The position numbers were made by a program, and so were the translations under genes. Positions 6,401 through 58,696 of a DNA stretch of 64,000 nt are shown in pieces (within the stretch, counting starts at the first letter, position 1; each line of letters opens with the position of its first letter). Location of the stretch: IMG/VR virus record IMGVR_UViG_3300048058_000013. One strand, given 5' to 3'. The notes below the pieces were generated by a model. It had not been told where the DNA came from. It ran no database searches and worked only from the letters and a program-made list of their open reading frames with translations. The DNA is from a virus.

Positions 6401-7063
6401 TTAGCGCGAATGGGCTCTAATCACCCAACGCTCCTTACCGGGGGAGGTAATTCCCCCCATATGGAAGATATCACTATCGAAGACTACTAACGTTCCAGCT
6501 TTACCAGTGACTGAGACAGGTTTATCATGCTTAACGTCAGGGTAATCTTCTATGTGATTCTTAATATCCATATAATGCTTGGCCGACGCGACGGCCTTCT
6601 TCCGTAATTCCGCACCCAATTTATGGGTCTTTGGGACGAACATTAGAGGACCGTTCTTGGGGCCGACATCATTAAGATATAAGAAAAATTTTAGAGCACG
6701 GGCGCGATCGAAGTGAAGATGGCCATTAGGGGCTAACCCCTTATCTGTTTGATAATCATGTGTAATGAATATTTCTGAATTGAAGCTCTTTACTCTACCC
6801 AAATAAGCGCTAGCTACTTTGCGCATCCATGGAGTATTAAAGAATTCACGTATATGTTTATGCTTCTTAATATGGTCATTATATATCCTACATGCTTTCC
6901 CAAATTCATAAGGAGGTAATGGAGGGGCATTTTCAAGGGCCGTGCGGGCATCCCTAGCAACCGCAGAGACCTTGGTATAGCGTTCAACCCTTACTATACC
7001 ATATTCTCTTAATTGCCCAGCGATATGTTGTACTACTTTGTCGTTAAGTTTAATGCCGTCCAT
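6401..7063 (-). CDS. 2-oxoglutarate/Fe(II) dioxygenase, phytanoyl-CoA dioxygenase (PhyH) family
   Basis: LHFD (HxD), KFFLYLNDV...NGPLMFVPKTH, GTLVVFDSDIFHMG (distal His), R-W-V. Confidence 0.85.
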   Translation of the reverse strand: MDGIKLNDKVVQHIAGQLREYGIVRVERYTKVSAVARDARTALENAPPLPPYEFGKACRIYNDHIKKHKHIREFFNTPWMRKVASAYLGRVKSFNSEIFITHDYQTDKGLAPNGHLHFDRARALKFFLYLNDVGPKNGPLMFVPKTHKLGAELRKKAVASAKHYMDIKNHIEDYPDVKHDKPVSVTGKAGTLVVFDSDIFHMGGITSPGKERWVIRAHSR

Positions 7064-8501: not shown

Positions 8502-11500
8502 TTAGCATTCGCAAGGTTCGCACTTACACTTCTTGCACTCGTCCTTCTTAGCCTTGGCCTTTTTACCCTTCTTCTTAGCCTTGGCCTTTTTACCCTTCTT
8601 CTTATCCTTCTTGGCTTCGCTTACAGTTGCGAGGCTCTTATCGAGGTTCTTATCAAAGGATTCCTCTTTGGGTTTTTCTGGACATTCGCAAGGATCGCAC
8701 TTACACTCTGGGCATCCTTCCTCGCCGCCTTCAGCTGGAGCGCCTTCTTCCTCTTCCTCTTCCTCTTCTTCGCCTTCTTCCTCGCCACCAGCTAGTTCTG
8801 GAGGTGGGCCACCGGCCTCTTCACCACCAACTACTTCTGGAGGTGGGCCGCCAGCTTCCTCTTCACCTTCGAGTTCGCCTTCGCCGCCGAGACCTGGAGG
8901 TGGGCCTTCAGGAGCACCTTCGCCACCCATGTCAGGCATATCGCCTACTGGAGCTGGCTCCATCCCGCCCATCTCGCCGCCTGGTGGAGGTGGAACCGGA
9001 GGCATACCCTCGCTACCTTCCTCGTGGCTCCTCATCGCATCCATGACCTTTACGATCACGTCATCCAGACGCTCGTCCGTGGAGAAAGCAACTGCTACAT
9101 CTTCCTTAACTGCTTTCTTCTCACTCTCTTTGCCCTCTTTTACTTCGCGGGGGGCTAGAGCAGACTTCTTGCGACCCCAAGCACGCATCCGAGGACCCTT
9201 TTGCTGATCCTCAGCCGCAGCTGGTTCGCCTTCGCCCTGTGGAGTTTCAGAGACATCAGCCTCTGGAGTCTGCTCAGCTTCGGCCTCTACTGGAGGGGCC
9301 TCTGCCGCTTCAGACTCTGGTTCCGTCACTGGAGTGGAATCATCTTCGATCGCCGCAGCGATCTGATCAATATCTTCCTTAACGTGAGTCTTCTTAGAGG
9401 CACCAAAGTGCTTATCCTGCTGATGTTCATCAGACATATCAGTCTCGCCGTCACCATAGCTCCGGCCGAGCTCGCCCTTAGGCTGCTTCATTGTGCCGCC
9501 CGAAAGGCCACTCTTGCTGACACCAGTCTTCTGATCGGACGAGCCACCCTCGCTACCTGAAGCCTTCTTTGTGTGACCAAAGTGCTTATCCTGCTGATGT
9601 TCGTCGCCCATGCCAGTTTCGCCTTCACCGTAGTTCCGGCCAAACTCGCCCTTGCCACCCTTCATCGAACCACCGCCATCAGCATGGCTTGCGCCAGTCT
9701 GCTTGGAGTAGTCTTCATCCAGTGTGGAAGCGAGTTTATCAATAAAGGACTCACTGACCGAATCAGTCTTGTCCTGAAGTTCATCAGCCATATCAGTCTC
9801 ACCATGACTGTAGCTCCGGCCATATTTGCCCTTGCCACTGCCCTGGGTGTAATCTTCAGCGCCCGAGGCACCACTGCCGTCACGGCCACTGACACTCTTT
9901 GCGGTCTTATCGGCAACACCCTTGGTCTTGCCCTGGAGTTCGTCCGACATCGTGGTGTCGTCACGGCCGTAAGTACGACCATACTTGCCCTTGCCAACGC
10001 TCATCGTTGGGTCATCGTTAGATTGGGCACCGTCACCCTTCCGACCATCAGCACTCTTTGTGCTAGACTTGGCAACACCACCACCACCCTGCAACTCGCT
10101 CGCACCGGAGTTGTCTCCGCCATGCTTGAGCATCTTGCCTGGTGCGGACATGCCACCGATCTCCTCAGCTACATAGTCGTCACGAATCTTTCCACCCGTG
10201 ATAACATCAACCTTACCCTCGTAGGGATCTTCTGGGAGATCCAAGGAAACGTCGTTACCCTGATCGATAACAACGTCGCGGATCCGCTCGAATTCTTCGC
10301 GGAGCTGCTTGCTGTTGACCTTCTGGGAACGATCAATTAGACGGTTAAGCTGATTGAAGCAATCCTCGAAACCATCTTCCTTGAGATAAATGTGGCCATC
10401 CGTGCGCCACTTTTCAAGCTCTTCCTGGAGCTCGATTGTAGACATCTTTTCGACTGGAGCCATCTCGCTCTCGGAGATAGCCGCGCCCCGCTGCTTGGAT
10501 GCCGCTAATGGGGCAGCCGCAGGAGCAGGAGCCGGAGCCGGAGCGCCAGCAGCGCCCGGACCAGCCGGGCCAGCAGGAGCAGCCGAACCGGCTGGACCAG
10601 CGCCCATACCAGCCTCGGCGGCAGGTTCCTTCTCTTCGTCACCTGCCTCAGGCAGTGGGACTGGAGGCTCTTCTTCACCCTCTGGCTTCTTCTCTTCATC
10701 CTCAGCACCAGGCATGCGATCGAAGCTGTCCAGAGCCTGGACACGATCAATGATCTGGTCGCCAATACCGGCCAAGAGTTCCTCAGCCTGGAAGATGACG
10801 TCCGTGGATGGTTCCTCGGATTCGAGCGATGATACGATATTGTCAATATCCTGAGTGAGCTGTTCCTGGCCCTGAATGTGACCCAAGACACTCTTGATGG
10901 TCTTCATCGCAACCAGGTAGGCTTTTGCACGGTTGCTATCAATATCGGTAGCCTCCGTGAAGACGCCCTCTAGGAATACTTCATAGTCAGAAGCGAAATT
11001 CTTGCTCTCACCAAGCGACTTGGCCTTAGTGAGTAGTTCTGGACTCTGGGCCTTCTCAGCCGTCTTCGTCCAGCACTCAATGATCGATGCCTCATTGACC
11101 TTCAAATTGGTCTTGTACATGAGAGTCGCAACATCTTCAATTAGGAATGGATTGAATTCCATCTGTGAGGACAGAGCAGACTCTACTAGCCCAGCCATAC
11201 CCTTCTTATCGAGTAGACAGAATTCCTGTTCTGTGCGAAGGAACTTAGCAGCCATCTCGACTGCCTCAGCGACCTTCTGCTCGCAGACTAGTCCAGCAAT
11301 ACCCTTGACTAGTCCCTGGAAGCTCGGAGAACTGTAAGCGCTCTCAGCGACTCCCCGCATACGACGAGCCACGATCCGACGACGTGTGAACTCATCAACA
11401 GGGATGGTGAAATCTTCACCGGTTTCCGTGAACGTGCCGCTTACAACCTGTCCTTCGGAGACTTCAACCGAGTCGGACACTGCGTTAACGAACGCTTCGA

Positions 11501-12002
11501 TGATCTGAGGAATCCTATCCTCTTCAATAATATCCTTCTCAACATTAACCTGACGAGCTTCCCCGTCACGAGTGGTTACCCAACCACTCTCTGGGATCAC
11601 GCGGCTACGGAACCGCTGCGCGGAAATCTTATCAAAAGCCTTCTCAGCGCCCCTGTAGTTGTTCTCGGAAATAGCATCAACAAGATCTTTACAGTTCTTG
11701 TCGAATAGGTCGGCCTTCTTTTCCTCGACTACCTTAATCCGCTTGATGTTATCAACGGTGTAGCGAGCGCCGTCCTTCTTAATATCACCCGAGTAGTAAG
11801 CCTTGCTATCGACGTCTTCGAAAATAAGGCTCGCTGGATGTAGCGCTGTCAGGCGGAAATTTTTCTTAGCTTCCTGGCCTAGACGAGTTACTACGCTCTC
11901 AAAGAAAAGGACCTTACTCTGCGCAGAGTTGTTGATAGCACGCAGAAAATTCCGGGCGTCCATCGTTGCCGACGCTGGAACATGCTTCTGTTCTGTGCCC
12001 AT
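8502..12002 (-). CDS. giant prohead core/internal protein (1166 aa) with internal repeats
   Basis: Between portal and protease (position of T4 gp67/gp68); four GKG(K/E)(Y/F/L)GRxY...MxDE repeats; Glu/Pro/Gly-rich linkers; Cys clusters and Lys-rich tail; GGAGGT SD. Confidence 0.7.
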   Translation of the reverse strand: MGTEQKHVPASATMDARNFLRAINNSAQSKVLFFESVVTRLGQEAKKNFRLTALHPASLIFEDVDSKAYYSGDIKKDGARYTVDNIKRIKVVEEKKADLFDKNCKDLVDAISENNYRGAEKAFDKISAQRFRSRVIPESGWVTTRDGEARQVNVEKDIIEEDRIPQIIEAFVNAVSDSVEVSEGQVVSGTFTETGEDFTIPVDEFTRRRIVARRMRGVAESAYSSPSFQGLVKGIAGLVCEQKVAEAVEMAAKFLRTEQEFCLLDKKGMAGLVESALSSQMEFNPFLIEDVATLMYKTNLKVNEASIIECWTKTAEKAQSPELLTKAKSLGESKNFASDYEVFLEGVFTEATDIDSNRAKAYLVAMKTIKSVLGHIQGQEQLTQDIDNIVSSLESEEPSTDVIFQAEELLAGIGDQIIDRVQALDSFDRMPGAEDEEKKPEGEEEPPVPLPEAGDEEKEPAAEAGMGAGPAGSAAPAGPAGPGAAGAPAPAPAPAAAPLAASKQRGAAISESEMAPVEKMSTIELQEELEKWRTDGHIYLKEDGFEDCFNQLNRLIDRSQKVNSKQLREEFERIRDVVIDQGNDVSLDLPEDPYEGKVDVITGGKIRDDYVAEEIGGMSAPGKMLKHGGDNSGASELQGGGGVAKSSTKSADGRKGDGAQSNDDPTMSVGKGKYGRTYGRDDTTMSDELQGKTKGVADKTAKSVSGRDGSGASGAEDYTQGSGKGKYGRSYSHGETDMADELQDKTDSVSESFIDKLASTLDEDYSKQTGASHADGGGSMKGGKGEFGRNYGEGETGMGDEHQQDKHFGHTKKASGSEGGSSDQKTGVSKSGLSGGTMKQPKGELGRSYGDGETDMSDEHQQDKHFGASKKTHVKEDIDQIAAAIEDDSTPVTEPESEAAEAPPVEAEAEQTPEADVSETPQGEGEPAAAEDQQKGPRMRAWGRKKSALAPREVKEGKESEKKAVKEDVAVAFSTDERLDDVIVKVMDAMRSHEEGSEGMPPVPPPPGGEMGGMEPAPVGDMPDMGGEGAPEGPPPGLGGEGELEGEEEAGGPPPEVVGGEEAGGPPPELAGGEEEGEEEEEEEEEGAPAEGGEEGCPECKCDPCECPEKPKEESFDKNLDKSLATVSEAKKDKKKGKKAKAKKKGKKAKAKKDECKKCKCEPCEC
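8548..8601. repeat. 27-bp tandem duplication encoding KKGKKAKAK x2
   Basis: TTAGCCTTGGCCTTTTTACCCTTCTTC occurs twice in tandem. Confidence 0.9.
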
Positions 12003-48129: not shown

Positions 48130-48740
48130 TATGACCCTTCCTGGTTTTGTGGACCAGTAAATCTCTTCTCAAGACGATTAAACCCAACCACATCGCCGTC
48201 CTTGTTGAGTATAAACCTGAAAGCTGTCACTTCATCTCCATTAAATTGTAAAGTGACCTCTTGTGTCTTTAAAGTGGAGTAAGTTGGATTAATTTTATCA
48301 AGTTTGATAGTAACAGGTACAGGGTCAGTATCATTACGATGATACATATGGACATTGACAATATATTCCCCAGGAACAATACCACGAACTATTACTATCT
48401 CTTGATTTGCGTCGTACTTGACATTGCCATCTGGTGTATTAGTAACATCATTACGATGCCCCAAATCATCACGATCAAGATGTAATAGACCATTCTCTCG
48501 GCGACTGAAATAAACAAAATTTCCTACTGGATCAGAGACATAAGTGTCGACATCATCATTAAACTTAGCTGGCCACGTTACAACGATGAAAAATTCAGCT
48601 TTTGGTTTTGGTGCATCATGAGATTCAACCTTTGCCGGATTTATTTGGATTACAGCCAAAATGAATAATACAACGAAACCCAATCCCATCAGCAACAGGA
48701 TATCAAACCAACCCTGATTTGTGTGATAACGATACTTCAC
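48129..48740 (-). CDS. MotB/ExbD-like single-TM protein with extracytoplasmic YfaP/DUF2135-like domain
   Basis: N-terminal GWFDILLLMGLGFVVLFILAVI (TM with the conserved Asp); DDVDTYVSDP.GN.VYF...LHLDRDD.G...E.....PGEY.VNVHMY. Confidence 0.6.
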   Translation of the reverse strand: MKYRYHTNQGWFDILLLMGLGFVVLFILAVIQINPAKVESHDAPKPKAEFFIVVTWPAKFNDDVDTYVSDPVGNFVYFSRRENGLLHLDRDDLGHRNDVTNTPDGNVKYDANQEIVIVRGIVPGEYIVNVHMYHRNDTDPVPVTIKLDKINPTYSTLKTQEVTLQFNGDEVTAFRFILNKDGDVVGFNRLEKRFTGPQNQEGS

Positions 48741-49249
48741 TTCTTCTTTCTAGGTAATGGTGCCTTAGGCATCGGATTGGATTTGGCATGTACTTGTTCT
48801 TCTTGCTTAGCATCTAATGCATTCGTAAGATTAAACAATTGGAGTTTCAATAATGCAGAACTAACTAAGCCCATCAATGTTGTATACAACGCCGTACCAA
48901 GACCATCACCGATCTTATTCATCAACTCCTTAGCATTATTGGCATCGTAATTATTAAAACCACTTCCTAAGATCATAATGAAGCCAACGACGGTGCCAAT
49001 CATACCGATTGTCAGAACTTGATCACTGACGAGCCAACCGAAATTTAGACCCGTTTTGTCCATCTTATAGGTGAGACGACCAATCCACATGGTCATCGCA
49101 GCCAATATGGCCATGATCACGAATCCAAGGTAGGACTTATCCGCATTCTGGAGTTCATGAAAGAAGCCATATTGATGTGCGAAGAATACACCCACTGAAG
49201 CTGGAACAACGACGAGCCACCACCGTAGAAATGGTGCATGATTTCTCAT
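48737..49249 (-). CDS. MotA/TolQ/ExbB proton-channel family protein
   Basis: LTIGMIGTVVGFIMIL...IGDGLGTALYTTLMGL signature; 4 hydrophobic segments; start reassigned to 49249 (MRNHAPFL). Confidence 0.8.
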   Translation of the reverse strand: MRNHAPFLRWWLVVVPASVGVFFAHQYGFFHELQNADKSYLGFVIMAILAAMTMWIGRLTYKMDKTGLNFGWLVSDQVLTIGMIGTVVGFIMILGSGFNNYDANNAKELMNKIGDGLGTALYTTLMGLVSSALLKLQLFNLTNALDAKQEEQVHAKSNPMPKAPLPRKKK

Positions 49250-49251
49250 AC

Positions 49252-50022
49252 TTATACCTTTGAATACTTGGGGGCCCATTCCCCAGCACCATTCTGCACG
49301 AAGTCGGCGAAAATATTTGGCCACTTCTGCTTTGCAATACGTGCTACCTTATCAAATACTAAATGGATCTCCGACTCGGCCCCCGCCGCTGTACGCATTT
49401 CAATGATATGACGAAGAGATCTAAAATTGAATGAGGCACCGATACATGTGGATAATCCTATAGGTGCTGCACGCCTCATGGCAGATGTGATAATTTTCTT
49501 GAAATGAAAATTCTTAGTATTATCAAGATCGTAAACTTTAGCTAGATGCAATTGTAGTTGTTCAAGATCTTCGAATGTCTTTTCAAATAGAGCAGTAATC
49601 TTAGGATCATTAATCTCTTCGGGTAACCATAATCCAAGATCAGTTAACCTGACATATCGGAGAGATTCCTGACTGTAGGCGGCCCCAGCCCGATGCCGAA
49701 CGAGTTCGTGTGTGAAAACTCGGCTTACATCAGCGAAGATCCAATTCGTGACAGCATGCTCAGTAACCGAACCGTGTTTACTTTTAAGAATGTTATTAAG
49801 GTAGACATCATTGCCCTCACGAACCTTAGTGACATTAGCGTTCATTCCAGGAAACCATGAACGATAACACATCCGCCCGTACGCTTCCGTTAATTTTTCA
49901 CCGCCAGATGGTGCGTCTGTCTTCCACCCCTCTGCACCTGCGTGTTTTAGATAAGCTTGAAAACCTTCTTCATCAACTTGGGTTTGACCTACTAAGAAAA
50001 CCTGGGGCTCTGTCCTATGCAT
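49252..50022 (-). CDS. thyX: flavin-dependent thymidylate synthase
   Basis: H.SV.EH, SRVFTHELVRHR.G.AYSQESLRYV (RHRx7SxR), NFRSLRH.IEMR....E.EI. Confidence 0.96.
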   Translation of the reverse strand: MHRTEPQVFLVGQTQVDEEGFQAYLKHAGAEGWKTDAPSGGEKLTEAYGRMCYRSWFPGMNANVTKVREGNDVYLNNILKSKHGSVTEHAVTNWIFADVSRVFTHELVRHRAGAAYSQESLRYVRLTDLGLWLPEEINDPKITALFEKTFEDLEQLQLHLAKVYDLDNTKNFHFKKIITSAMRRAAPIGLSTCIGASFNFRSLRHIIEMRTAAGAESEIHLVFDKVARIAKQKWPNIFADFVQNGAGEWAPKYSKV

Positions 50023-50627: not shown

Positions 50628-51092
50628 TTACGTAGTAAATTTGCCTACATAATAGTAGAATGTAGGTATGAATATAATATTCAATTCCTCAGCGATTGAT
50701 ATTCGATGATTGCCATTCTGAAGCTTAGGAAGGCCTTTTTCAGAAATACGAACAATTGCTGGAAATTGGATTGACCAACCTTTGGCTTTTATAGACGCGT
50801 GTAGTGCATCCCATTTTGATATACCATCCAACCAGTCTTCTTGCTTCTGTTCAGCCCATAACTTCATCTCAGCATAGCCGCTCAATGATCTGCCTCGCCG
50901 ACGGCGGCGGCCTTTACGATATTTCTTAAGATCGTTAATTGGAGTTAAATAGATGAAATTAGTATCAATTACGATTTGGTGTTCTTTCCAGTCGCGATCA
51001 AGGTCGATTATTAGTTTAGGGATTTGTTTTGTTCTTAAAGGACCTGGATATTCCTTTAAAAAATTCTCAAATCTCTCAACGCCCCTACCCAT
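50628..51092 (-). CDS. ParB/sulfiredoxin-like domain protein
   Basis: LHASIKAKGW...PAIVR.......LQNGNHRISIAEELN...IP. Confidence 0.7.
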   Translation of the reverse strand: MGRGVERFENFLKEYPGPLRTKQIPKLIIDLDRDWKEHQIVIDTNFIYLTPINDLKKYRKGRRRRRGRSLSGYAEMKLWAEQKQEDWLDGISKWDALHASIKAKGWSIQFPAIVRISEKGLPKLQNGNHRISIAEELNIIFIPTFYYYVGKFTT

Positions 51093-51624
51093 TCTTCTTA
51101 TAGATTCTTGCTAACCTATCTTGTTCTTTAAAAACAAGATTATAAGACGAATAAACATCAGTATCCTCAAATGGATGTTGATATCCTGAGATTACAAGGC
51201 CCCCTCCATTTTTAACCATATCCGAAAGAGCAGTAATTTGTTGATTGAATAACTTAAACGGATAAAGTTTATCGCGATTCTTATCATTCATCCTCAACAC
51301 GTTTAGTGCGAATACAATGTCGAATGGACCATAATTTGGGAGCGTATCATGTCGTGAAATGATGAATTCAATTTGATGATCTTTATTCTCTTGACGAGCT
51401 ACTGCTATTGCTTTTTCATTGATATCAGCACCCAAAATACGACAATCAGGATGATATTTTCTCAGACTGTGACATTCATCCCCAAAACTACAACCAAAGC
51501 AGAGAATATAAGGATTATCCCATATCTCAGCAGTCTTCTTAAACATCTCTGGATATCGATCGGGACGTCTACCGGAACGTTCGCGTATTTTGATATCGAG
51601 AGGTTTATTGCCATTTGTCGGCAT
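51085..51624 (-). CDS. class I SAM-dependent methyltransferase
   Basis: ILCFGCSFGDE (motif I), ILGADIN, FDIVFALNVL, GGLVI. Confidence 0.8.
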   Translation of the reverse strand: MPTNGNKPLDIKIRERSGRRPDRYPEMFKKTAEIWDNPYILCFGCSFGDECHSLRKYHPDCRILGADINEKAIAVARQENKDHQIEFIISRHDTLPNYGPFDIVFALNVLRMNDKNRDKLYPFKLFNQQITALSDMVKNGGGLVISGYQHPFEDTDVYSSYNLVFKEQDRLARIYKKNG

Positions 51625-52279
51625 AATTTTTGAGGTCCGTTTGTATTAATTCCCTCTTCTTACGAAAAGGCGTTCCAAGATAGTGACAGAAAAGAGCATC
51701 ACGCATTCCTTCATGGCGATAACGCTTAGGACAATAGTTGTATTTCCTATCATCTAGATATTTCACGACAATCCCAGATTCAACAATCAGGTAATTCATA
51801 TAAGCCTGTTCATAATCAGGTCCGCTAAACGGTGTCCTACGACCATGAAGCCATAATAACGCCTGAATGTCCTTATTCCGTAGACTCATTAGACCATCAT
51901 TAAAGTAAACATCAGATGGCCATGTTATACCAGTCTGCTTTTCAATCACTCGAATGCATTTCTCCCTATAGCGCTGATTTTGTTTACTCCCCTGCCATCT
52001 AAAATTAGAAAGCGATGTCATCCCACTCAAATCTGGAGCATGCTTATCAACTAGAATGTCAATGTCAATATAAATGATGTTCTCAAATTTCTTCTCGATA
52101 GCATCTTCGAAAATCTTAAATTTCAAAAAATGGACAGATGGAAAGGGAGAGTAATTAGGATCATTATACTCCACAAATTGTAAATTATGTCTATCGGCAT
52201 AAGCCCGGATTAGAGGGATGGTTAGATTACCTATAGCCTGACTTTCTTCACCAACATTTAATACATAAACAGCGTTCAT
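51605..52279 (-). CDS. GT-A fold glycosyltransferase-like protein
   Basis: FLKFKIF, IIYIDIDILV (DxD), YFNDGLM, EQAYMNYL, FCHYLG. Confidence 0.75.
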   Translation of the reverse strand: MNAVYVLNVGEESQAIGNLTIPLIRAYADRHNLQFVEYNDPNYSPFPSVHFLKFKIFEDAIEKKFENIIYIDIDILVDKHAPDLSGMTSLSNFRWQGSKQNQRYREKCIRVIEKQTGITWPSDVYFNDGLMSLRNKDIQALLWLHGRRTPFSGPDYEQAYMNYLIVESGIVVKYLDDRKYNYCPKRYRHEGMRDALFCHYLGTPFRKKRELIQTDLKNYADKWQ

Positions 52280-53220
52280 TGCTTCCTCGCCCTTGTTCTT
52301 TTTTCTTGTCTTGCTTTCCGTCTCTTCTCTAAACGATTCTTCTTCCAGTTAAGACCTTCACATGGGATAATAGTGTTAGCATAAGTCTTGTCACACCATT
52401 GTTTATATTGCTCTTCATACATGATACTACGAAGATAGGTATCATTACCCAAACCCATAAAATTCTTCTTTATGGCTTCTTCAGCTGCTTGCCACCATAT
52501 GGCGTAATCAGGATGAGAATGCCACATAATAACAGCATCAAATTGTTCTTGAGTTAAACGCCAATAGGATCTAACCCTTCTCATAACAGGATTTTTAAAA
52601 GTCGCGACGTGAGCTTTTCTCCCATTTTTCATTAAGACATAGCTCATTGCTCGTTGATCATCTTTAACAAGTGTACAAAGATTAGCTACTGCTGCACAAT
52701 AAGGCCATCTATTTCTCCAACCCAATAAACCAAATTCAATATAATATGGAGTTATATTAACATCGAACTTAGGATCTACTTTACGATAATCCTCTACATG
52801 GATCTTCCACTGATTCAAATCACTACGGGTATTGAGACCAATAACTGATTCACCATCAACTACACTATGGAATGTGGTCATCCATCCTGGTGTCTTGTGA
52901 ATAGCATCAAATAGTTTGTCTATTTTGTTAACAAAAACTGTATCACAATCAGGATGTAAGACTCTAGTATAATTAATTTGTCCCATACCTGCCCAACGAG
53001 AACGCCAATGTTGTCGGAGCCTGTGATCTTTTCCACTACCAGGGACTATTTTAATAGTGGCAATCTTGCTATTAATGAATTCATTAAGATATGGAACAGA
53101 AGTTTTACCTAGACAAACAACGATTTCACCATCATAAAACCTTCTGAGGGTGTAAATCGATACAAGTAATTCTATAAGTGGCTTCTTACCACCACAATAG
53201 TAGACAACTGCATCGCTCAT
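52276..53220 (-). CDS. GT-A fold glycosyltransferase-like protein
   Basis: LLVSIYTLRRFY, LHPDCDTVF (DxD), EFG..G, DDQRAM, WH. Confidence 0.6.
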   Translation of the reverse strand: MSDAVVYYCGGKKPLIELLVSIYTLRRFYDGEIVVCLGKTSVPYLNEFINSKIATIKIVPGSGKDHRLRQHWRSRWAGMGQINYTRVLHPDCDTVFVNKIDKLFDAIHKTPGWMTTFHSVVDGESVIGLNTRSDLNQWKIHVEDYRKVDPKFDVNITPYYIEFGLLGWRNRWPYCAAVANLCTLVKDDQRAMSYVLMKNGRKAHVATFKNPVMRRVRSYWRLTQEQFDAVIMWHSHPDYAIWWQAAEEAIKKNFMGLGNDTYLRSIMYEEQYKQWCDKTYANTIIPCEGLNWKKNRLEKRRKARQEKRTRARKQ

Positions 53221-53223
53221 TTC

Positions 53224-53436
53224 TCATCCTAGAATTACTCGGTTCGTAGCTTGACGAATGATATCTTCGGCGGCCTTTTTCTGTAAGCCTTCTACGATAC
53301 CAATCCACTTACCAGATTCTCTGATTTCTATCCGCTGTAATCCCGTCAGGGGACTCTGGCCAGACATCGGGACTACACGAACATTAGAAGATCCAGCAAT
53401 CTTGATCCGCTGAACCGCTTCACTTAAGTTTAACAT
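53224..53436 (-). CDS. hypothetical protein
   Basis: 70 aa, coupled within the operon. Confidence 0.55.
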   Translation of the reverse strand: MLNLSEAVQRIKIAGSSNVRVVPMSGQSPLTGLQRIEIRESGKWIGIVEGLQKKAAEDIIRQATNRVILG

Positions 53437-53828
53437 TTTCTACGCTCTCTAATATGTATTGATTCAACCCATTGTATCTCGCGCACAGTCTCACCACGCC
53501 CCAATTTATTTGGTGTTGCGATAACAACTGCCGCCTCTGGTTCGCTTAATGGAGCTAACAACAATTTAGCCGCAATATCGTCGTCTTTGGTTTCTACTTC
53601 TATAACGAGCTCATCGTTAAAAAGACGAATATCCGTCACATGATGAGTAACAGTATTATCAATAAGTTTATTGTTGCTCAATACGCCCCCAATTAATTTG
53701 CCTTCTTTGATAGATTGTTTAAGTTTAGGATTATTTACTAAACTCTCTAAAACCTCACGGGGGTATATGTTACCATCTAGAGTAGGAAAATCGGCACATA
53801 TTCCTGTGCCTAGCACCATTTGCGTCAT
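53430..53828 (-). CDS. truncated prohead-protease (gp21) paralog, probably inactive
   Basis: TLDGNIYPREVL..GKLIG...VTHHVTDIRL.NDELVIEVE aligns with gp21 NSNGRIYENEIL..RRVLG...VSHLLTKLW.EGNEVIGELE; no SSRG. Confidence 0.55.
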   Translation of the reverse strand: MTQMVLGTGICADFPTLDGNIYPREVLESLVNNPKLKQSIKEGKLIGGVLSNNKLIDNTVTHHVTDIRLFNDELVIEVETKDDDIAAKLLLAPLSEPEAAVVIATPNKLGRGETVREIQWVESIHIRERRKC

Positions 53829-55072
53829 AGACTAGAAATATCTTTCCTGTCGAGGAAGACACTATCATCTATAGTCTTCCATGTCCCAATAAAGATTCCA
53901 CTCAGATTGATATTATGAAGAGCACAGAATTCCTTAACATCATCTGCTAGAATATAGTCCTTCAGCCAAGCTATGACACGCGGTGTCAATACTTCGTCTT
54001 TGGTGCGCTTTCCTTTTACACTACTATCGACATAATTCATGAAGTTGACGCTGATATAAACATCATCTCCAGTATTGTTAAATCTCAATGCCTCCTTCAT
54101 GTTTTGTTTACTGAAAGTGAAGATCCGTCGCGGAAGCTTAGTAAGACTTGTACACTCGAAGATAGGCTCCCCGGCATAATCAGAGATTTCTTCCCAAGTC
54201 AACTCACGCTGATCATCATAAAATCCACCAGAATCACCGCGTATTATATGACGATCGGAGGGCGGAGTGGTATTGAATTCATCCCAAGTTAGAATCTTGC
54301 GATCTGATTTACGGACATATTTGTTGTTATTAACTCGTATCGGAAATGTCCGGAAATTGATCACTACCGGGCCCACAACTGACGGAGGCAACAGTGCGTC
54401 ATCCAAAAAAGCGGAAACCGTGCAGTTGCGGCTAGTAGTCTTAGGCCAGAATTTGGTGAACAGCCCTAGCTGATAGCCTTGTGCTATTTCACCGAGTCCG
54501 CACTCCCCAGAATCAAGTCGACTCATTATCTCAATATTCGTATCGCAAAGGAATGGCCGAAGCGCATCTACATCTCGAGCCAATCGAGCGTCTGGGCGAC
54601 GAAGAACACGTCTAGCTCTTGCGGCACCTACACCATGTAGAGTAGAGCCAATATTTAAATTAGAACTACCGAGCTCCTCCTTGGGACGCCCCTCAAAATC
54701 AACACGACCACATTCGTAATCTAAATCAGTCTGTGTCACAATTGCTGCATTAGGATGGATAGCCAATTTAGAGGGGCCAACCTTAAATTGTGTAATCTCA
54801 CCTAGGATCTCTCTTTCAGAAAAAGCGCAGCCTGGGCTAATGTATTGCTTCTGATAATCATCTAAAGTCGTAATACTAGAAAGACATTGGTGCACGTATT
54901 CACGCCCATCGCCATGGGTAATAGTATGCGCAGCATTACTCATGAACGTATTCACAGCAAATGTTGCTTCGCCGCGCATATACTTCCAAATATGGGCCCC
55001 TCGAAGCCCCTTAGCGCTGCTACCAGCGCCGCCATCCATAACTATAGTGACCTTCCCCGGCTTAAAGATCAT
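53825..55072 (-). CDS. purZ: N6-succino-2-amino-2'-deoxyadenylate synthase (PurZ-type adenylosuccinate synthetase homolog)
   Basis: GAGSSAKG (Ser in place of PurA Asp13), NAAHT, GSTLHGVG, EIAQG, RTFPIRV.N, TKLPRRIFTFS, NFMNY (NxxN in place of the PurA GTP-binding KxD). Confidence 0.85.
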   Translation of the reverse strand: MIFKPGKVTIVMDGGAGSSAKGLRGAHIWKYMRGEATFAVNTFMSNAAHTITHGDGREYVHQCLSSITTLDDYQKQYISPGCAFSEREILGEITQFKVGPSKLAIHPNAAIVTQTDLDYECGRVDFEGRPKEELGSSNLNIGSTLHGVGAARARRVLRRPDARLARDVDALRPFLCDTNIEIMSRLDSGECGLGEIAQGYQLGLFTKFWPKTTSRNCTVSAFLDDALLPPSVVGPVVINFRTFPIRVNNNKYVRKSDRKILTWDEFNTTPPSDRHIIRGDSGGFYDDQRELTWEEISDYAGEPIFECTSLTKLPRRIFTFSKQNMKEALRFNNTGDDVYISVNFMNYVDSSVKGKRTKDEVLTPRVIAWLKDYILADDVKEFCALHNINLSGIFIGTWKTIDDSVFLDRKDISSL

Positions 55073-55087: not shown

Positions 55088-55837
55088 TTAAGTTATCAAT
55101 GTATGAGTTGCCTGCCATCCCGGTGTGATAGTGGCAAGTCTCATGTACTTTTCTAATTGTGATTCTGGAACACCGTTTCGTAGCCATTTCGCACCATCCC
55201 ATCTGAAGCTAGCCTGCTTAAGGGCCTCTTTATGACGCTGGAAGCCCGGATTCTGGAAATCAGGACGCCCTTCGTGCCATGCTTGAATGAGATACTTCGG
55301 CTCATTTATCACTTTCATTAGCTCTAGTAAATCGTGTTTTGCGGCCATCTCACAACATAGTAAAGCATCAAACAAAGCTCGATGCGCTTTGGAGGTGGTA
55401 TTTGGCGTTAGCCCATAATCAAGCGCCAAGTGTTGGAGCCGAGTAGATCCAACCTTACGAACAAACTTGCCATGAGGGAGATCTTTATCAGTACACAGCC
55501 ATGATAATTTGGCGAATTCAGGCCAACGCTTAGTTACAAAACCCTTATCATATTCGGCATTATGGGCCACTATTAACTCAGGCTTGTAACTCTTGACTAA
55601 GGACCAAGGATTGAATTGATTATCATAGCCAAGTTGTGAGGCTTCGCGTGTGATTTGATGCACACTCTGGGCTTCATCTGACCATTTCTCTGTCTGATAT
55701 AGATCAGAATGAAGGGCTAGTAACTGCTGATGAGGTGGATCATATACCGCCTCATAAACGACACACCCTAATTCCACTATTTCATCAGTCTCAACATCGA
55801 GACCCGTAGTTTCAACATCAATTCCCAAGATAATCAT
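55088..55837 (-). CDS. DEDDh 3'-5' exonuclease (DnaQ/PolIII-epsilon-like)
   Basis: IDVETTG, VAHNAEYD, HRALFDA; start reassigned to 55837 (ATGA overlap). Confidence 0.9.
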   Translation of the reverse strand: MIILGIDVETTGLDVETDEIVELGCVVYEAVYDPPHQQLLALHSDLYQTEKWSDEAQSVHQITREASQLGYDNQFNPWSLVKSYKPELIVAHNAEYDKGFVTKRWPEFAKLSWLCTDKDLPHGKFVRKVGSTRLQHLALDYGLTPNTTSKAHRALFDALLCCEMAAKHDLLELMKVINEPKYLIQAWHEGRPDFQNPGFQRHKEALKQASFRWDGAKWLRNGVPESQLEKYMRLATITPGWQATHTLIT

Positions 55838-56211
55838 TCTAACATTTCCTTCGGAATAGGTTCCACCCAGTGTTGAGGGACCCACAAGTGCATTCCATCA
55901 TGAAACTTGATTTTATAATGCTTATGATCACGCTTTGCAACCACTCCAGGTTCTAAATGTTTCTTATGTTCTTTATTAATTACAAAGACGGGGGTACCTT
56001 CGGGTAATTCTGGAATTTGTGTTTTAAAAACTGGAACATGACTGACTACAATGACTTCACGTTCTAGATTCAATTTAGTCCAAAAGATCGAAGCGCACTG
56101 AGTGCAAATAATTGGGATGTATCCTACCTTCTCCCAAGATGACACACCAGATGTATTGGCTGTGCCACAATACGGACACTTAAAATTGTCAGAAACTGAA
56201 TCATTCGACAT
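55834..56211 (-). CDS. Zn-ribbon + SH3/KOW-like small protein
   Basis: CPYC...CTQC followed by G.PVFVI......GVV..RD..HYKIKF.DG..LWVP. Confidence 0.55.
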   Translation of the reverse strand: MSNDSVSDNFKCPYCGTANTSGVSSWEKVGYIPIICTQCASIFWTKLNLEREVIVVSHVPVFKTQIPELPEGTPVFVINKEHKKHLEPGVVAKRDHKHYKIKFHDGMHLWVPQHWVEPIPKEMLE

Positions 56212-56914
56212 CTTGACCCACCTGCCCTATGACCTTCACATCATCGACCGGTGGTTGATCCTCGTCCTTCTTCTCTTCTTGTTTAGGCTGAGCCGGACGT
56301 AAAAGCTTATTCGCTTGGTCTAGTGTAACGTCGAATCTACTTTCCCGTTCGCGCTCTAAGATACCCTGAGCTATAATGAACTCAATTACACCAGAAAACT
56401 TGATTGGAGTTGGTGTATACTTTCGAATACTAGTAATCAACTCAATAAATGACTCGATATCCGATCCCCATGGAGTAGTACGAATCATATTACAAGGATA
56501 ATCCTTAATAACTTCCAGAAGGCTCTTATAATTATCGAAATTAGACTTGGGGCCGATCGACCACCGAATCTCTGCCAACGGATTAACAGACCTAATGAAT
56601 TCTGTTAAAGCTTTCACTTCATCACGAGCACGAGCTTTAGTTAAGCCTAACGAAGCCGTGATATCGAAACCATCGGCAGAAGCTACATCCTGTCCGATAT
56701 CGCGTAGCTTCAGTAAACCAAAGTCAGTGCCACCAAGAGAAGCTATAATCTTATACTTGCTCTTTTTGAGAGTCCGATCAGTGACAAATGGTGCCAATAG
56801 ATCGGATGGAATAATAATTGCTGGACAATTGTTCCTTACGACGAACAAACTAGCAAAAGCTGGATTTGTACGCCGATCTACATTGAGTTCCATACGGGTA
56901 GTAACGTCGAACAT
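56201..56914 (-). CDS. divergent DeoC (deoxyribose-phosphate aldolase)-like TIM-barrel protein
   Basis: Ordered segments AIIIP / KIIASLG / ADGFDI / IRWSI / CNMIRTT / PIKFSG / RFDVT parallel DeoC AVCV.P / VCTVIG / ADEIDMV / KVILE / ADFVKTS / VKASGG / RIGTS. Confidence 0.45.
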   Translation of the reverse strand: MFDVTTRMELNVDRRTNPAFASLFVVRNNCPAIIIPSDLLAPFVTDRTLKKSKYKIIASLGGTDFGLLKLRDIGQDVASADGFDITASLGLTKARARDEVKALTEFIRSVNPLAEIRWSIGPKSNFDNYKSLLEVIKDYPCNMIRTTPWGSDIESFIELITSIRKYTPTPIKFSGVIEFIIAQGILERERESRFDVTLDQANKLLRPAQPKQEEKKDEDQPPVDDVKVIGQVGQDVE

Positions 56915-56923
56915 AATATTCCT

Positions 56924-57475
56924 CTATCGCTTATAAAATAATGGTAACCATTTAATACGATCAACTTCGACTTCACCAGCGTTCAGCTTCCTTAGAAAGA
57001 TAAACATCTCTTCCCATGTATAAAAGAATGTTTGTTCTAGACTAGCTGGCGTGGAAAAGACTGCTGGTGTCCAGGTTGATTGAAGACCATCAGGAATGCA
57101 GAGTAATACTGGTTTATTTTGCTGACCAGCCAGATAAATCTCTTCCCAAGTGCCGCTAGTCCATTTCTTAGGATGATAACAAATGACGAAATCAGCTGCG
57201 GTTACTGATCGGAGACAGAGATCCCGTAGAATCGTGTTGGCTTTGAAGATATCTTCCTTAGTGTATTCAGTTGAGTCACCACGTAGAACTGGTAGATATG
57301 AGCTTGGCTTTGCTCTACAGACTTCAGGGATCCAATCAGGCTTAACTAAAGGATCATATACGAAAATGTCGTATCTCTTGAGGTGTTCAGTTACCCGTTC
57401 CCGCCATCCTCTAGCACCTGGGTCTTGTTCGACTGGTCCAGCGAGGTAAACACGTTTATTCTTTAACAAATCCAT
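56924..57475 (-). CDS. nucleoside 2-deoxyribosyltransferase / N-glycosidase family protein
   Basis: VYLAGP....WR, YDP, D...V..ADFVI, SGTWEE...A....KPV. Confidence 0.8.
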   Translation of the reverse strand: MDLLKNKRVYLAGPVEQDPGARGWRERVTEHLKRYDIFVYDPLVKPDWIPEVCRAKPSSYLPVLRGDSTEYTKEDIFKANTILRDLCLRSVTAADFVICYHPKKWTSGTWEEIYLAGQQNKPVLLCIPDGLQSTWTPAVFSTPASLEQTFFYTWEEMFIFLRKLNAGEVEVDRIKWLPLFYKR

Positions 57476-57694: not shown

Positions 57695-58696
57695 TTATCC
57701 CTTCTTGTTACCAAAAGCTTCCAATATTATATTCACCGCGTCAGCTTGATGTAAACGCGAAAAACTATCTACAAACTTATATTTATTGTAACTCGAGCAG
57801 ATTACTATCCTCTGTCGGTCAACCGCATTCAAGGTCTTAGCGGCATGATCATAACTCTCAGCTTCCCGACTAAAACGCTTCAAACGATTCTCATCAGAAA
57901 CATCCGGATTCTTGCCATAATAATGGAGTTTTCCACCTACCGATCCCATATCCAAACCAAAGATGTAAATCTTATCATATCCCATCCATACCGCAACCTG
58001 AAGATTGGCATACGTTGATGAACGGCCGATATAATATCCTTTAACGAGGTCCTTTGAAAACCCTTTCGCGGACAAACTCCGGATTAAAACCTGTTTTGGC
58101 CGACGCACTCGTACTGACGACGCATTTACAACAGTCCCATTATAAGAGTTCCAAATATCCTTATTACGAGCATATTGACTCTGATCACAAAATCCCCAGT
58201 ATGTTGATGGCCAGACACGGGGATCTGGCTTATTAATGCACATAATATCAATCTTATTGTGACCTCTTAATTGTTCTAAAGGTGCTTCACTTATAGAGGG
58301 GCCACAAGCTACCATTATTAAAGCTTTCCCACGCCCAATATCCTTTAATTTAGTGATAGCATCCCTATATTGTTCTAATAATTGTCCGTGCCTACGAGAT
58401 GCTGATTGTCTGTTCTCAGCCAACCTATGAGGAGATACCTTGACAACGCGCCTCTCCGGTGGTTTAATAACGACTTGATTTCTCTTCCAAGGAGATGGCT
58501 TGTGGAATTTTGGAACAGCCTTCTTTACATTCGGATTTGGTAGTGGGGATTGAGGCGATTGATGAACCTTACGGGGGTGAACAGCCTTTACCTGCCCTCG
58601 AGGCACAGCCATTGGTGGTCTATGCGCAACAGGCTTGCTTACCTTAATGTGAACTCTTTGAACCTGAGGTTTCTTAACGGATCTGTAATGGACCAC
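57695..58696 (-). CDS. DUF115/Maf/MptE-like (sialyltransferase-fold) protein with basic N-terminal extension
   Basis: VACGPSI, IMCIN, YWGFCD, SSTYANLQVAVWMGYDKIYIFGLDM. Confidence 0.7.
   Translation of the reverse strand: MVHYRSVKKPQVQRVHIKVSKPVAHRPPMAVPRGQVKAVHPRKVHQSPQSPLPNPNVKKAVPKFHKPSPWKRNQVVIKPPERRVVKVSPHRLAENRQSASRRHGQLLEQYRDAITKLKDIGRGKALIMVACGPSISEAPLEQLRGHNKIDIMCINKPDPRVWPSTYWGFCDQSQYARNKDIWNSYNGTVVNASSVRVRRPKQVLIRSLSAKGFSKDLVKGYYIGRSSTYANLQVAVWMGYDKIYIFGLDMGSVGGKLHYYGKNPDVSDENRLKRFSREAESYDHAAKTLNAVDRQRIVICSSYNKYKFVDSFSRLHQADAVNIILEAFGNKKG

Follow-up and report, generated by a model that had tools for sequence, protein, structure and literature searches.

A putative PurZ-type enzyme encoded beside an NDT-like/DERA-fold gene pair in a large T4-like phage

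We analysed 64,000 nucleotides of viral DNA from IMG/VR record IMGVR_UViG_3300048058_000013 (the window), in which an earlier note, made from the sequence alone, had read one open reading frame (ORF) as PurZ, an enzyme of 2-aminoadenine (Z) synthesis, in a large T4-like myovirus. The purZ-like gene (Table 1) encodes P0001, a putative N6-succino-2-amino-2'-deoxyadenylate synthase homologue. Each motif quoted in that note is present in the protein: GAGSSAKG at residues 15-22 (with Ser18), RTFPIRVNNN at 241-250 (quoted as RTFPIRV.N), TKLPRRIFTFS at 311-321 and NFMNY at 343-347. Public gene callers begin the protein at Met12 (P0002, 404 aa). Because residues 2-11, including F3, K4 and G6, are nearly invariant among relatives, we take the longer start at position 55072 to be correct. 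The window also encodes a gp23-like major head protein, a gp21-like protease, portal, large terminase, sheath, tube and gp25/gp6/gp5-like baseplate proteins, interleaved with genes for a helicase, a primase, ribonucleotide reductase and ThyX. Together these genes confirm the T4-like myovirus setting.

P0001 matched Pfam Adenylsucc_synt (PF00709) at 1.2e-10, above the cut-off, and phrog_1211 ('2-aminooxy adenylosuccinate synthetase') at 2.5e-35. In a sequence search of solved structures the best match was PurZ of Vibrio phage phiVC8 (7.8e-28), followed by PurZ of cyanophage S-2L (2e-17) and Pyrococcus horikoshii PurA (2.6e-16), with the PurZ0 chain 7VF6 reaching only 2.9e-5. The top-scoring protein model was NCBIfam PurZ NF038379 (143.8 bits); the archaeal-type PurA model gave 106 bits and bacterial PurA models gave 20-41 bits (TIGR00184: 41.5 against a cut-off of 395). 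With an AlphaFold (AF2) model of P0001 (pLDDT 79) as the query, the top Foldseek matches were phiVC8 PurZ structures (E 4e-22, TM 0.78), then P. horikoshii PurA and S-2L PurZ, with PurZ0 at rank 17.

PurA keeps a catalytic aspartate and uses IMP and GTP. To compare active-site residues, we aligned P0001 with 117 full-length relatives, the PurZ proteins of phiVC8, S-2L, PMBT28, DMU1, ZP6 and BpsS-140, four PurZ0 proteins, the homologue from phage MaF61 and E. coli PurA. Ser18 of P0001 aligns with Asp13 of E. coli PurA, and this position is Ser in 117 of 117 family members and in all 269 homologues collected. The remaining catalytic set (K21, N46, H49, T144, R158, Q198, T213, T311 and R315) is intact, R158 being the arginine supplied by the partner subunit. 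When the residue roles described for the S-2L dGMP pocket (PMC8342488) were mapped onto P0001, G22, S23, N49, A50, T132, Q190, V241, G130, S131, R146, T205 and R240 were matched and Y203 was not. N343 aligns with the guanine-specific Asp333 of E. coli PurA, and the adenine pocket formed by N343, F344, N346 and Y347 corresponds to N294, F295, N297 and Y298 of phiVC8. These four positions are kept in 113-117 of the 117 members, whereas they read T/S, M/F, D and Q/S in PurZ0 and D, V, D and G in PurA.

Two further features concern the sugar of the substrate. R303 of PurA contacts the 2'-OH of IMP, and its loss is a deoxy-substrate feature (PMC8342488); the equivalent residue in P0001 is Leu313, as in S-2L and PMBT28. 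A PurZ-specific insertion is said to press a conserved Val against C2' and so enforce 2'-deoxy selectivity (PMC8342488). The insertion in P0001 directly follows V247, at this same site, and that of MaF61 is longer still. In addition, the marker residues P233, Y244, W252, T262, F295 and Y298 (phiVC8 numbering), defined by a metagenomic dZ-enrichment study (bioRxiv 10.1101/2025.10.22.683976), are conserved in the family.

We placed P0001 in a maximum-likelihood tree of 59 rows rooted on E. coli PurA, with the clade group named after a first tree was seen. PurZ0 (100/100) stood apart from all other Ser-type proteins (96/87), and classical PurZ formed its own clade (99/100). P0001 and MaF61 fell together in a clade of 21 rows (100/99), which is nested in a 98/98 group within the PurZ side, and E. 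coli PurA lay outside all Ser-type proteins. Forcing the P0001 clade to the base cost 40 log-likelihood units and was rejected (p-AU 0.025). The invariant Ser, the ATP-type adenine pocket, the loss of the R303 equivalent, the tree placement and the best fold match support, at the level of sequence and model, a PurZ-type rather than a PurA-type enzyme. The active-site alignment and the PurA/PurZ/PurZ0 phylogeny, both of which had been suggested as checks, agree with the original identification on these points.

The clade comprises hundreds of metagenomic proteins from many samples, on contigs of 80-384 kb, and includes the cultured phage MaF61. A word-indexed search returned 767 proteins at E <= 1e-5 on contigs of up to 384 kb, and an exhaustive search returned, at E <= 1e-30, 78 clusters formed at half identity. 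An identical copy of the purZ-like gene is present in JGI sample 3300048497. In IMG/VR, scanning with a single protein gave no match; an alignment-based scan did find relatives. A protein search seeded with PurZ0 listed only PurZ0-type proteins. Because scans of 185,579 species genomes yielded no relative, they provide no lead to a host or a prophage. One protein that is 70% identical to P0001 (P0011) lies on a 119,972-bp NCBI contig labelled Candidatus Nitrosocaldus sp. (an archaeal metagenome-assembled genome bin). Because all relatives have a phage context, this contig is probably mis-binned phage DNA, an archaeal host being the less likely reading. Several clade homologues (P0122, P0126 and P0139; also P0129, P0130, P0174 and P0214) contain inserted inteins, which bring some members to 750-824 aa. 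The intein domains are of the Hint/Intein_splicing type, one with a LAGLIDADG endonuclease, and they interrupt the catalytic GST motif (residues ~130-143 of P0001) or lie just before the TSR motif (residue ~212). Inteins at these motifs fit a purZ gene under strong selection.

Just upstream of purZ are genes for a protein of the nucleoside 2-deoxyribosyltransferase (NDT) superfamily and for a TIM-barrel protein with the fold of deoxyribose-5-phosphate aldolase (DERA). In a family alignment of the NDT-like protein, Tyr10, Glu16 (the acidic residue six places beyond the Tyr), Asp95 and Glu112 are invariant or nearly so. DmtZ, an NDT-family enzyme of PurZ0 phages, converts dAMP to adenine and deoxyribose-5-phosphate and can transfer the sugar phosphate to the Z base; the roles of its catalytic residues are described in the same study (PMC12884076). 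The conserved set of the NDT-like protein lines up with Tyr6, Asp12 and the nucleophilic Glu in the DmtZ domain of phage Wayne. A statistical association also links NDT domains to dZ-resistant contigs, and dA is the preferred substrate of one of these enzymes (bioRxiv 10.1101/2025.10.22.683976). By analogy, the NDT-like protein is a candidate DmtZ-like dNMP N-glycosidase. It gave no significant match to a candidate protein of phage Frizzle, whose identity as DmtZ is a guess and not an annotation. A 389-aa dUTPase frame in a 247-kb relative was considered as a DmtZ-DutZ fusion and rejected: the frame runs on from an HNH-like stretch upstream into an ordinary dUTPase. For the second protein of the pair, the AF2 model (pLDDT 85) retrieved almost exclusively DERA structures among its top 50 Foldseek matches in the PDB (E ~1e-6, TM 0.6-0.7). 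Structural look-alikes in the Atlas agreed with this fold, and Pfam DeoC did not match the protein.

The two genes are linked to each other and to purZ. Homologues of both lie just upstream of purZ in 12-13 of the 18 loci of the query subclade, the group around P0001 with the P-loop [GSQ]AGSS[GA]KG. A search from the NDT side recovered 11 loci. In every one of them the DERA-like gene immediately follows the NDT-like gene, and a Ser-type PurZ is encoded within 1-3 kb; in two of them the PurZ belonged to other lineages (28-30% identical to P0001). Two IMG/VR contigs, L091 (274,625 bp) and L094 (75,320 bp), also bear on this linkage: on the jumbo-sized one, a classical-type PurZ with the P-loop QFGSTGKG and a DERA-fold gene occur within 10 kb, and no DatZ, MazZ or DpoZ was found in those 10 kb. 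Neither the NDT-like nor the DERA-like protein was found in any cultured phage. By tblastn, the DERA-like protein was found in no deposited phage, and its profile varied too much to be used in scanning the collection. For the NDT-like protein, a relative was found in just one deposited phage record, that of an uncultured 595-kb phage (LR756511.1:559035-559505; 28% identity).

Table 1. Predicted genes at the purZ-like locus of the window.
Feature	Position	Strand	Length	Remarks
ORF downstream of purZ	53224..53436	(-)	70 aa	Homologues beside purZ in L018, L026, L031
purZ-like gene, putative N6-succino-2-amino-2'-deoxyadenylate synthase homologue (P0001)	53825..55072	(-)	415 aa	Frame open and intact
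DnaQ/RNase T-type DEDD 3'-5' exonuclease	55088..55885	(-)	265 aa	PF00929 8.5e-12; phrog_192 'DNA polymerase exonuclease subunit'
Zinc-ribbon protein	55834..56211	(-)	125 aa	Weak Zn_ribbon_Elf1 match; homologues in L018, L019, L024-L027
TIM-barrel protein, DeoC/DERA fold	56201..56914	(-)	237 aa	Fold from predicted model; no sequence-family match
NDT-superfamily protein	56924..57475	(-)	183 aa	Pfam PF15891/PF05014
MptE/WaaZ-like (glycosyltransferase-like) protein	57695..58696	(-)	333 aa	Weak PF01973 and TIGR04437 matches

The other genes at the locus differ in how consistently they accompany purZ. In many relatives the zinc-ribbon gene is located between purZ and the DERA-like gene, and it often belongs to the cluster. 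The MptE/WaaZ-like gene is kept upstream of the module in most relatives, and its membership in the module is uncertain. The DnaQ-like exonuclease, a candidate proofreading subunit, was rejected as a core part of the module because it occurs at purZ only in the closest relative. Two glycosyltransferase-like genes and an S-adenosylmethionine-dependent methyltransferase gene lie directly downstream of the purZ cluster (50628-53220). This block was likewise rejected as part of the module, and because relatives lack it there, it looks like an insertion peculiar to this phage. Farther away, the window encodes a membrane protein of the MotA/ExbB family (48737-49324) and, at 6401-7063, a 2-oxoglutarate/Fe(II) oxygenase of PhyH type; neither is usual cargo for a T4-like phage. 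A 1166-aa ORF without a family match (8502-12002) lies between the prohead protease and portal genes; in MaF61 a 1404-aa 'prohead scaffold' is encoded at a comparable place.

The earlier note had presumed a family-B replisome, which the genomic context does not support. A scan of ORFs of at least 55 aa found no polymerase gene in the window. On a 370-kb ENA contig whose PurZ is 67% identical to P0001, a gene for DNA polymerase III alpha (family C) lies 0.5 kb downstream of purZ (L143:11766-14216), and a dCMP deaminase gene lies directly upstream of purZ. Of 13 related records, 6 contain the Pol III alpha domain PF07733, in many cases broken by inserts, and among the related records examined Pol B was confined to MaF61 and two others, all more distant. 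A family-C polymerase would fit with the DnaQ-like exonuclease next to purZ. Records G002, G005-G008 and G010 are among those that encode Pol III alpha. In several records its gene is divided over separate frames, a pattern suggestive of inteins or of inserted homing endonucleases. Several relatives that encode Pol III alpha also carry short Pol A-like ORFs of 370-400 aa.

We compared P0001 and its setting with characterised systems. The PurZ proteins (also named deoxyguanylosuccinate synthase, DgsS) of phiVC8 (PDB 6FM1/6FKO/6TNH) and S-2L (7ODX) share with P0001 the fold, the Ser in place of Asp13, the insertion after the Val, the catalytic, aspartate-loop and adenine-pocket residues and the loss of the R303 equivalent. 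P0001 is 50-70 aa longer than these proteins, owing to an insertion larger by about 30 aa (249-277) and a C-terminal extension. The settings also differ, since phages of the phiVC8/S-2L type are sipho- or podoviruses of 38-67 kb, whereas P0001 is encoded by a large T4-like myovirus with no datZ, mazZ or dpoZ beside its gene. P. horikoshii PurA (PDB 2D7U/5K7X) has the same compact fold form and is the second-best structural match, but P0001 differs from this archaeal-type PurA in having Ser and an ATP-type pocket. PurZ0 (Arthrobacter phage Wayne/Gordonia phage Ghobes type, PDB 7VF6) is a Ser-type enzyme like P0001, but it forms a separate clade, has a different nucleotide pocket and is a far weaker match. 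The PurZ0 pathway uses DmtZ, the NDT-family dAMP hydrolase, instead of DatZ (PMC12884076). The NDT-like protein of the window resembles DmtZ weakly and, unlike the Wayne DmtZ-DutZ protein, is not fused to a dUTPase.

The closest cultured comparison is MaF61, a 167.8-kb Flavobacterium phage of the myovirus type (PMC13269007). Its ORF141 (PQ858689) belongs to the same clade as P0001, shares its GSS(G/A)KG P-loop, carries its insertion at the corresponding position and is likewise encoded by a T4-like myovirus. The two proteins are 33% identical, and MaF61 keeps the Phe before Gly-Ser. The NDT-like and DERA-like genes are missing from MaF61, which itself encodes PurB (Lyase_1 and ASL_C domains), guanylate kinase, an HD_3 hydrolase, MazG and Pol B; HD_3 is the Pfam family reported for DatZ (bioRxiv 10.1101/2025.10.22.683976). 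In the MaF61-like subclade, guanylate kinase is encoded near purZ in five loci, PurB in two and Pol B in one. Because PurB, guanylate kinase, HD_3 and MazG represent the follow-on and pool-clearing steps, the MaF61 gene set lends independent support, again from sequence, to the suggestion that the clade serves a Z-type pathway.

From sequence, models and analogy, we propose that the gene in the window encodes a functional PurZ-type enzyme in a Z pathway in which the NDT-like/DERA-fold pair replaces the usual helpers, and we give this reading a probability of roughly 60%. A P0001 dimer would phosphorylate O6 of dGMP with ATP (or dATP), after which aspartate would replace the phosphate to yield N6-succino-2-amino-2'-deoxyadenylate. 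Adenylosuccinate lyase, guanylate kinase and NDP kinase, provided by the host or by phage genes outside the window, would then lead to dZTP for phage DNA. The NDT-like protein may hydrolyse dAMP to adenine and deoxyribose-5-phosphate, as DmtZ does, and the DERA-fold protein may consume or otherwise handle the deoxyribose-5-phosphate. Together they would destroy or recycle dAMP, so that removal of adenine nucleotides becomes irreversible, and in the query subclade they would take the place of the DatZ dATPase, MazZ and DpoZ. We read the pair as serving dAMP removal because of the chemistry of DmtZ and the association of NDT domains with dZ-resistant contigs. The first step, conversion of dGMP, rests on residue, fold and tree evidence, and we infer the later steps from gene linkage and analogy. 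Virion DNA would carry Z in place of A, fully or partly.

Several observations weigh against this proposal. P0001 is only 27-30% identical to characterised PurZ proteins, its score with NF038379 is less than half of the curated cut-off of that model (300), and the tree was built without an archaeal PurA outgroup. Its pocket could differ from that of classical PurZ, because Ala16 (Ala in 109 of 117 members) occupies the position before Gly-Ser where PurZ has Phe, Tyr or Trp, Lys211 replaces Tyr203 of S-2L, the phiVC8 G256 position is Ser or Thr, and an invariant His146 is new relative to classical PurZ. The match between the NDT-like protein and the Wayne DmtZ-DutZ protein is weak (hhalign E 0.0078, probability 5%). 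In the DERA-fold protein, the strand-6 Schiff-base position is Arg145 (Arg in 8 and Lys in 3 of 11 sequences); because the strand-7 Lys (K173) is present in 9 of 11 and the strand-4 Asp is mostly kept, aldolase chemistry is possible but not assured. The usual helpers are missing as well. Across 80 IMG/VR loci and the 370-kb contig, DatZ, MazZ and DpoZ lay within 10 kb in nearly all loci whose P-loop has the classical form Q[FYW]GSTGKG, whereas DatZ, DutZ, DUF5664, MazZ/DUF550 and DpoZ were absent within 10 kb of purZ in the 18 loci of the query subclade. The search for datZ, mazZ/DUF550 and the polymerase type that the earlier note had suggested was run within the window and found none of them; in the same ORF scan, HD/DatZ, MazG/MazZ/DUF550, dUTPase and DpoZ were not found. 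Neither phmmer searches with DatZ, MazZ and DpoZ of phiVC8, S-2L and PMBT28 nor those with HD, MazG, PurB, Gmk and PolB of MaF61 found anything in the window or in five related contigs. A search with PF04447 (DUF550) matched no genome, controls included, and is therefore uninformative.

Without exclusion of dATP, A need not be replaced. P0001 could be an active PurZ that brings about partial Z incorporation, or one that mainly reshapes the dGMP and dAMP pools, for instance so that the host is starved or defences that sense nucleotides are evaded, and we regard this as unlikely. It accords with the lack of any dATPase or Z-selective polymerase in the window or beside purZ in the subclade, given that removal of dATP is essential for A exclusion where the polymerase is non-selective (PMC8342488). 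However, CheckV figures for the nearest relatives indicate genomes of several hundred kb, and the window represents 64 kb of a genome that, from CheckV figures for relatives, is estimated at well over 200 kb, so the missing functions may lie elsewhere; in the closest relative, a MazG gene is located 55 kb from purZ. The NDT-like/DERA-like pair also offers a dAMP-destroying route, and S-2L PurZ itself consumes dATP (PMC8342488).

The pocket changes bear on a second alternative, which we consider quite unlikely, that a PurZ-derived enzyme has drifted to another substrate or product (another purine deoxynucleotide, or another amine) and, with the NDT-like and DERA-fold proteins, builds a purine modification other than Z. 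Ala16, Lys211, His146 and the insertion of 30-60 aa beside V247 are specific to the clade, the PurZ model score is under its cut-off, the helper set is wholly unlike known Z clusters, and the glycosyltransferase and methyltransferase genes directly downstream of purZ are specific to the window; all of these speak for such an enzyme. However, the reported contacts to the dGMP base, the tip of the aspartate loop (T308, T311, R315 and R316) and the contacts to the ATP adenine are all conserved, and in S-2L PurZ the aromatic residue before Gly-Ser is reported to touch the base through its backbone only (PMC8342488). Relatives lack the glycosyltransferase/methyltransferase block beside purZ, and MaF61-type relatives carry PurB and guanylate kinase, as a plain Z route needs. 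An ordinary adenylosuccinate synthetase, acting as an auxiliary metabolic gene that boosts AMP from IMP during infection, is scarcely credible despite the PF00709 match and the database labelling of relatives as 'adenylosuccinate synthase', since Ser stands at Asp13 throughout the family, Asn at Asp333 and Leu at R303, scores with PurA models are much lower and E. coli PurA lies outside all Ser-type proteins in the tree.

The Z-DNA phages covered by three PurZ studies have genomes of ~38-83 kb, replicate with family-A DpoZ or PrimPol polymerases and fall into seven gene-sharing groups (PMC12884076, PMC8342488, bioRxiv 10.1101/2025.10.22.683976). Jumbo, T4-like or myovirus hosts of the pathway are not mentioned in these three studies, and our text searches of the literature found no paper tying PurZ or aminoadenine to jumbo phages or myoviruses. 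The view that the large T4-type setting was uncharacterised thus holds for the PurZ literature searched. What is new here is a subclade that combines the NDT-like/DERA-fold helper pair with a family-C polymerase context. We suggest, tentatively, that a large, widespread and nearly entirely uncultured group of T4-like and jumbo myoviruses, many with family-C Pol III alpha, may build DNA in which 2-aminoadenine or a derivative takes the place of adenine. These phages may exclude adenine by a new route, in which an NDT-family dAMP N-glycosidase and a DERA-fold enzyme that removes the freed deoxyribose-5-phosphate stand in for DatZ, MazZ and DpoZ.

Because MaF61 is a cultured member of the clade, the central claim is directly testable. 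Replication proteins of family-C or T4 type would be of interest for DNA engineering if they accept Z. If the clade is functional, Z chemistry reaches T4-like and jumbo phages with different replisomes. The NDT-like/DERA-fold pair would then be a third, independently assembled helper set for adenine removal beside DatZ/MazZ and DutZ/DmtZ, and would deepen the picture of functional convergence around PurZ.

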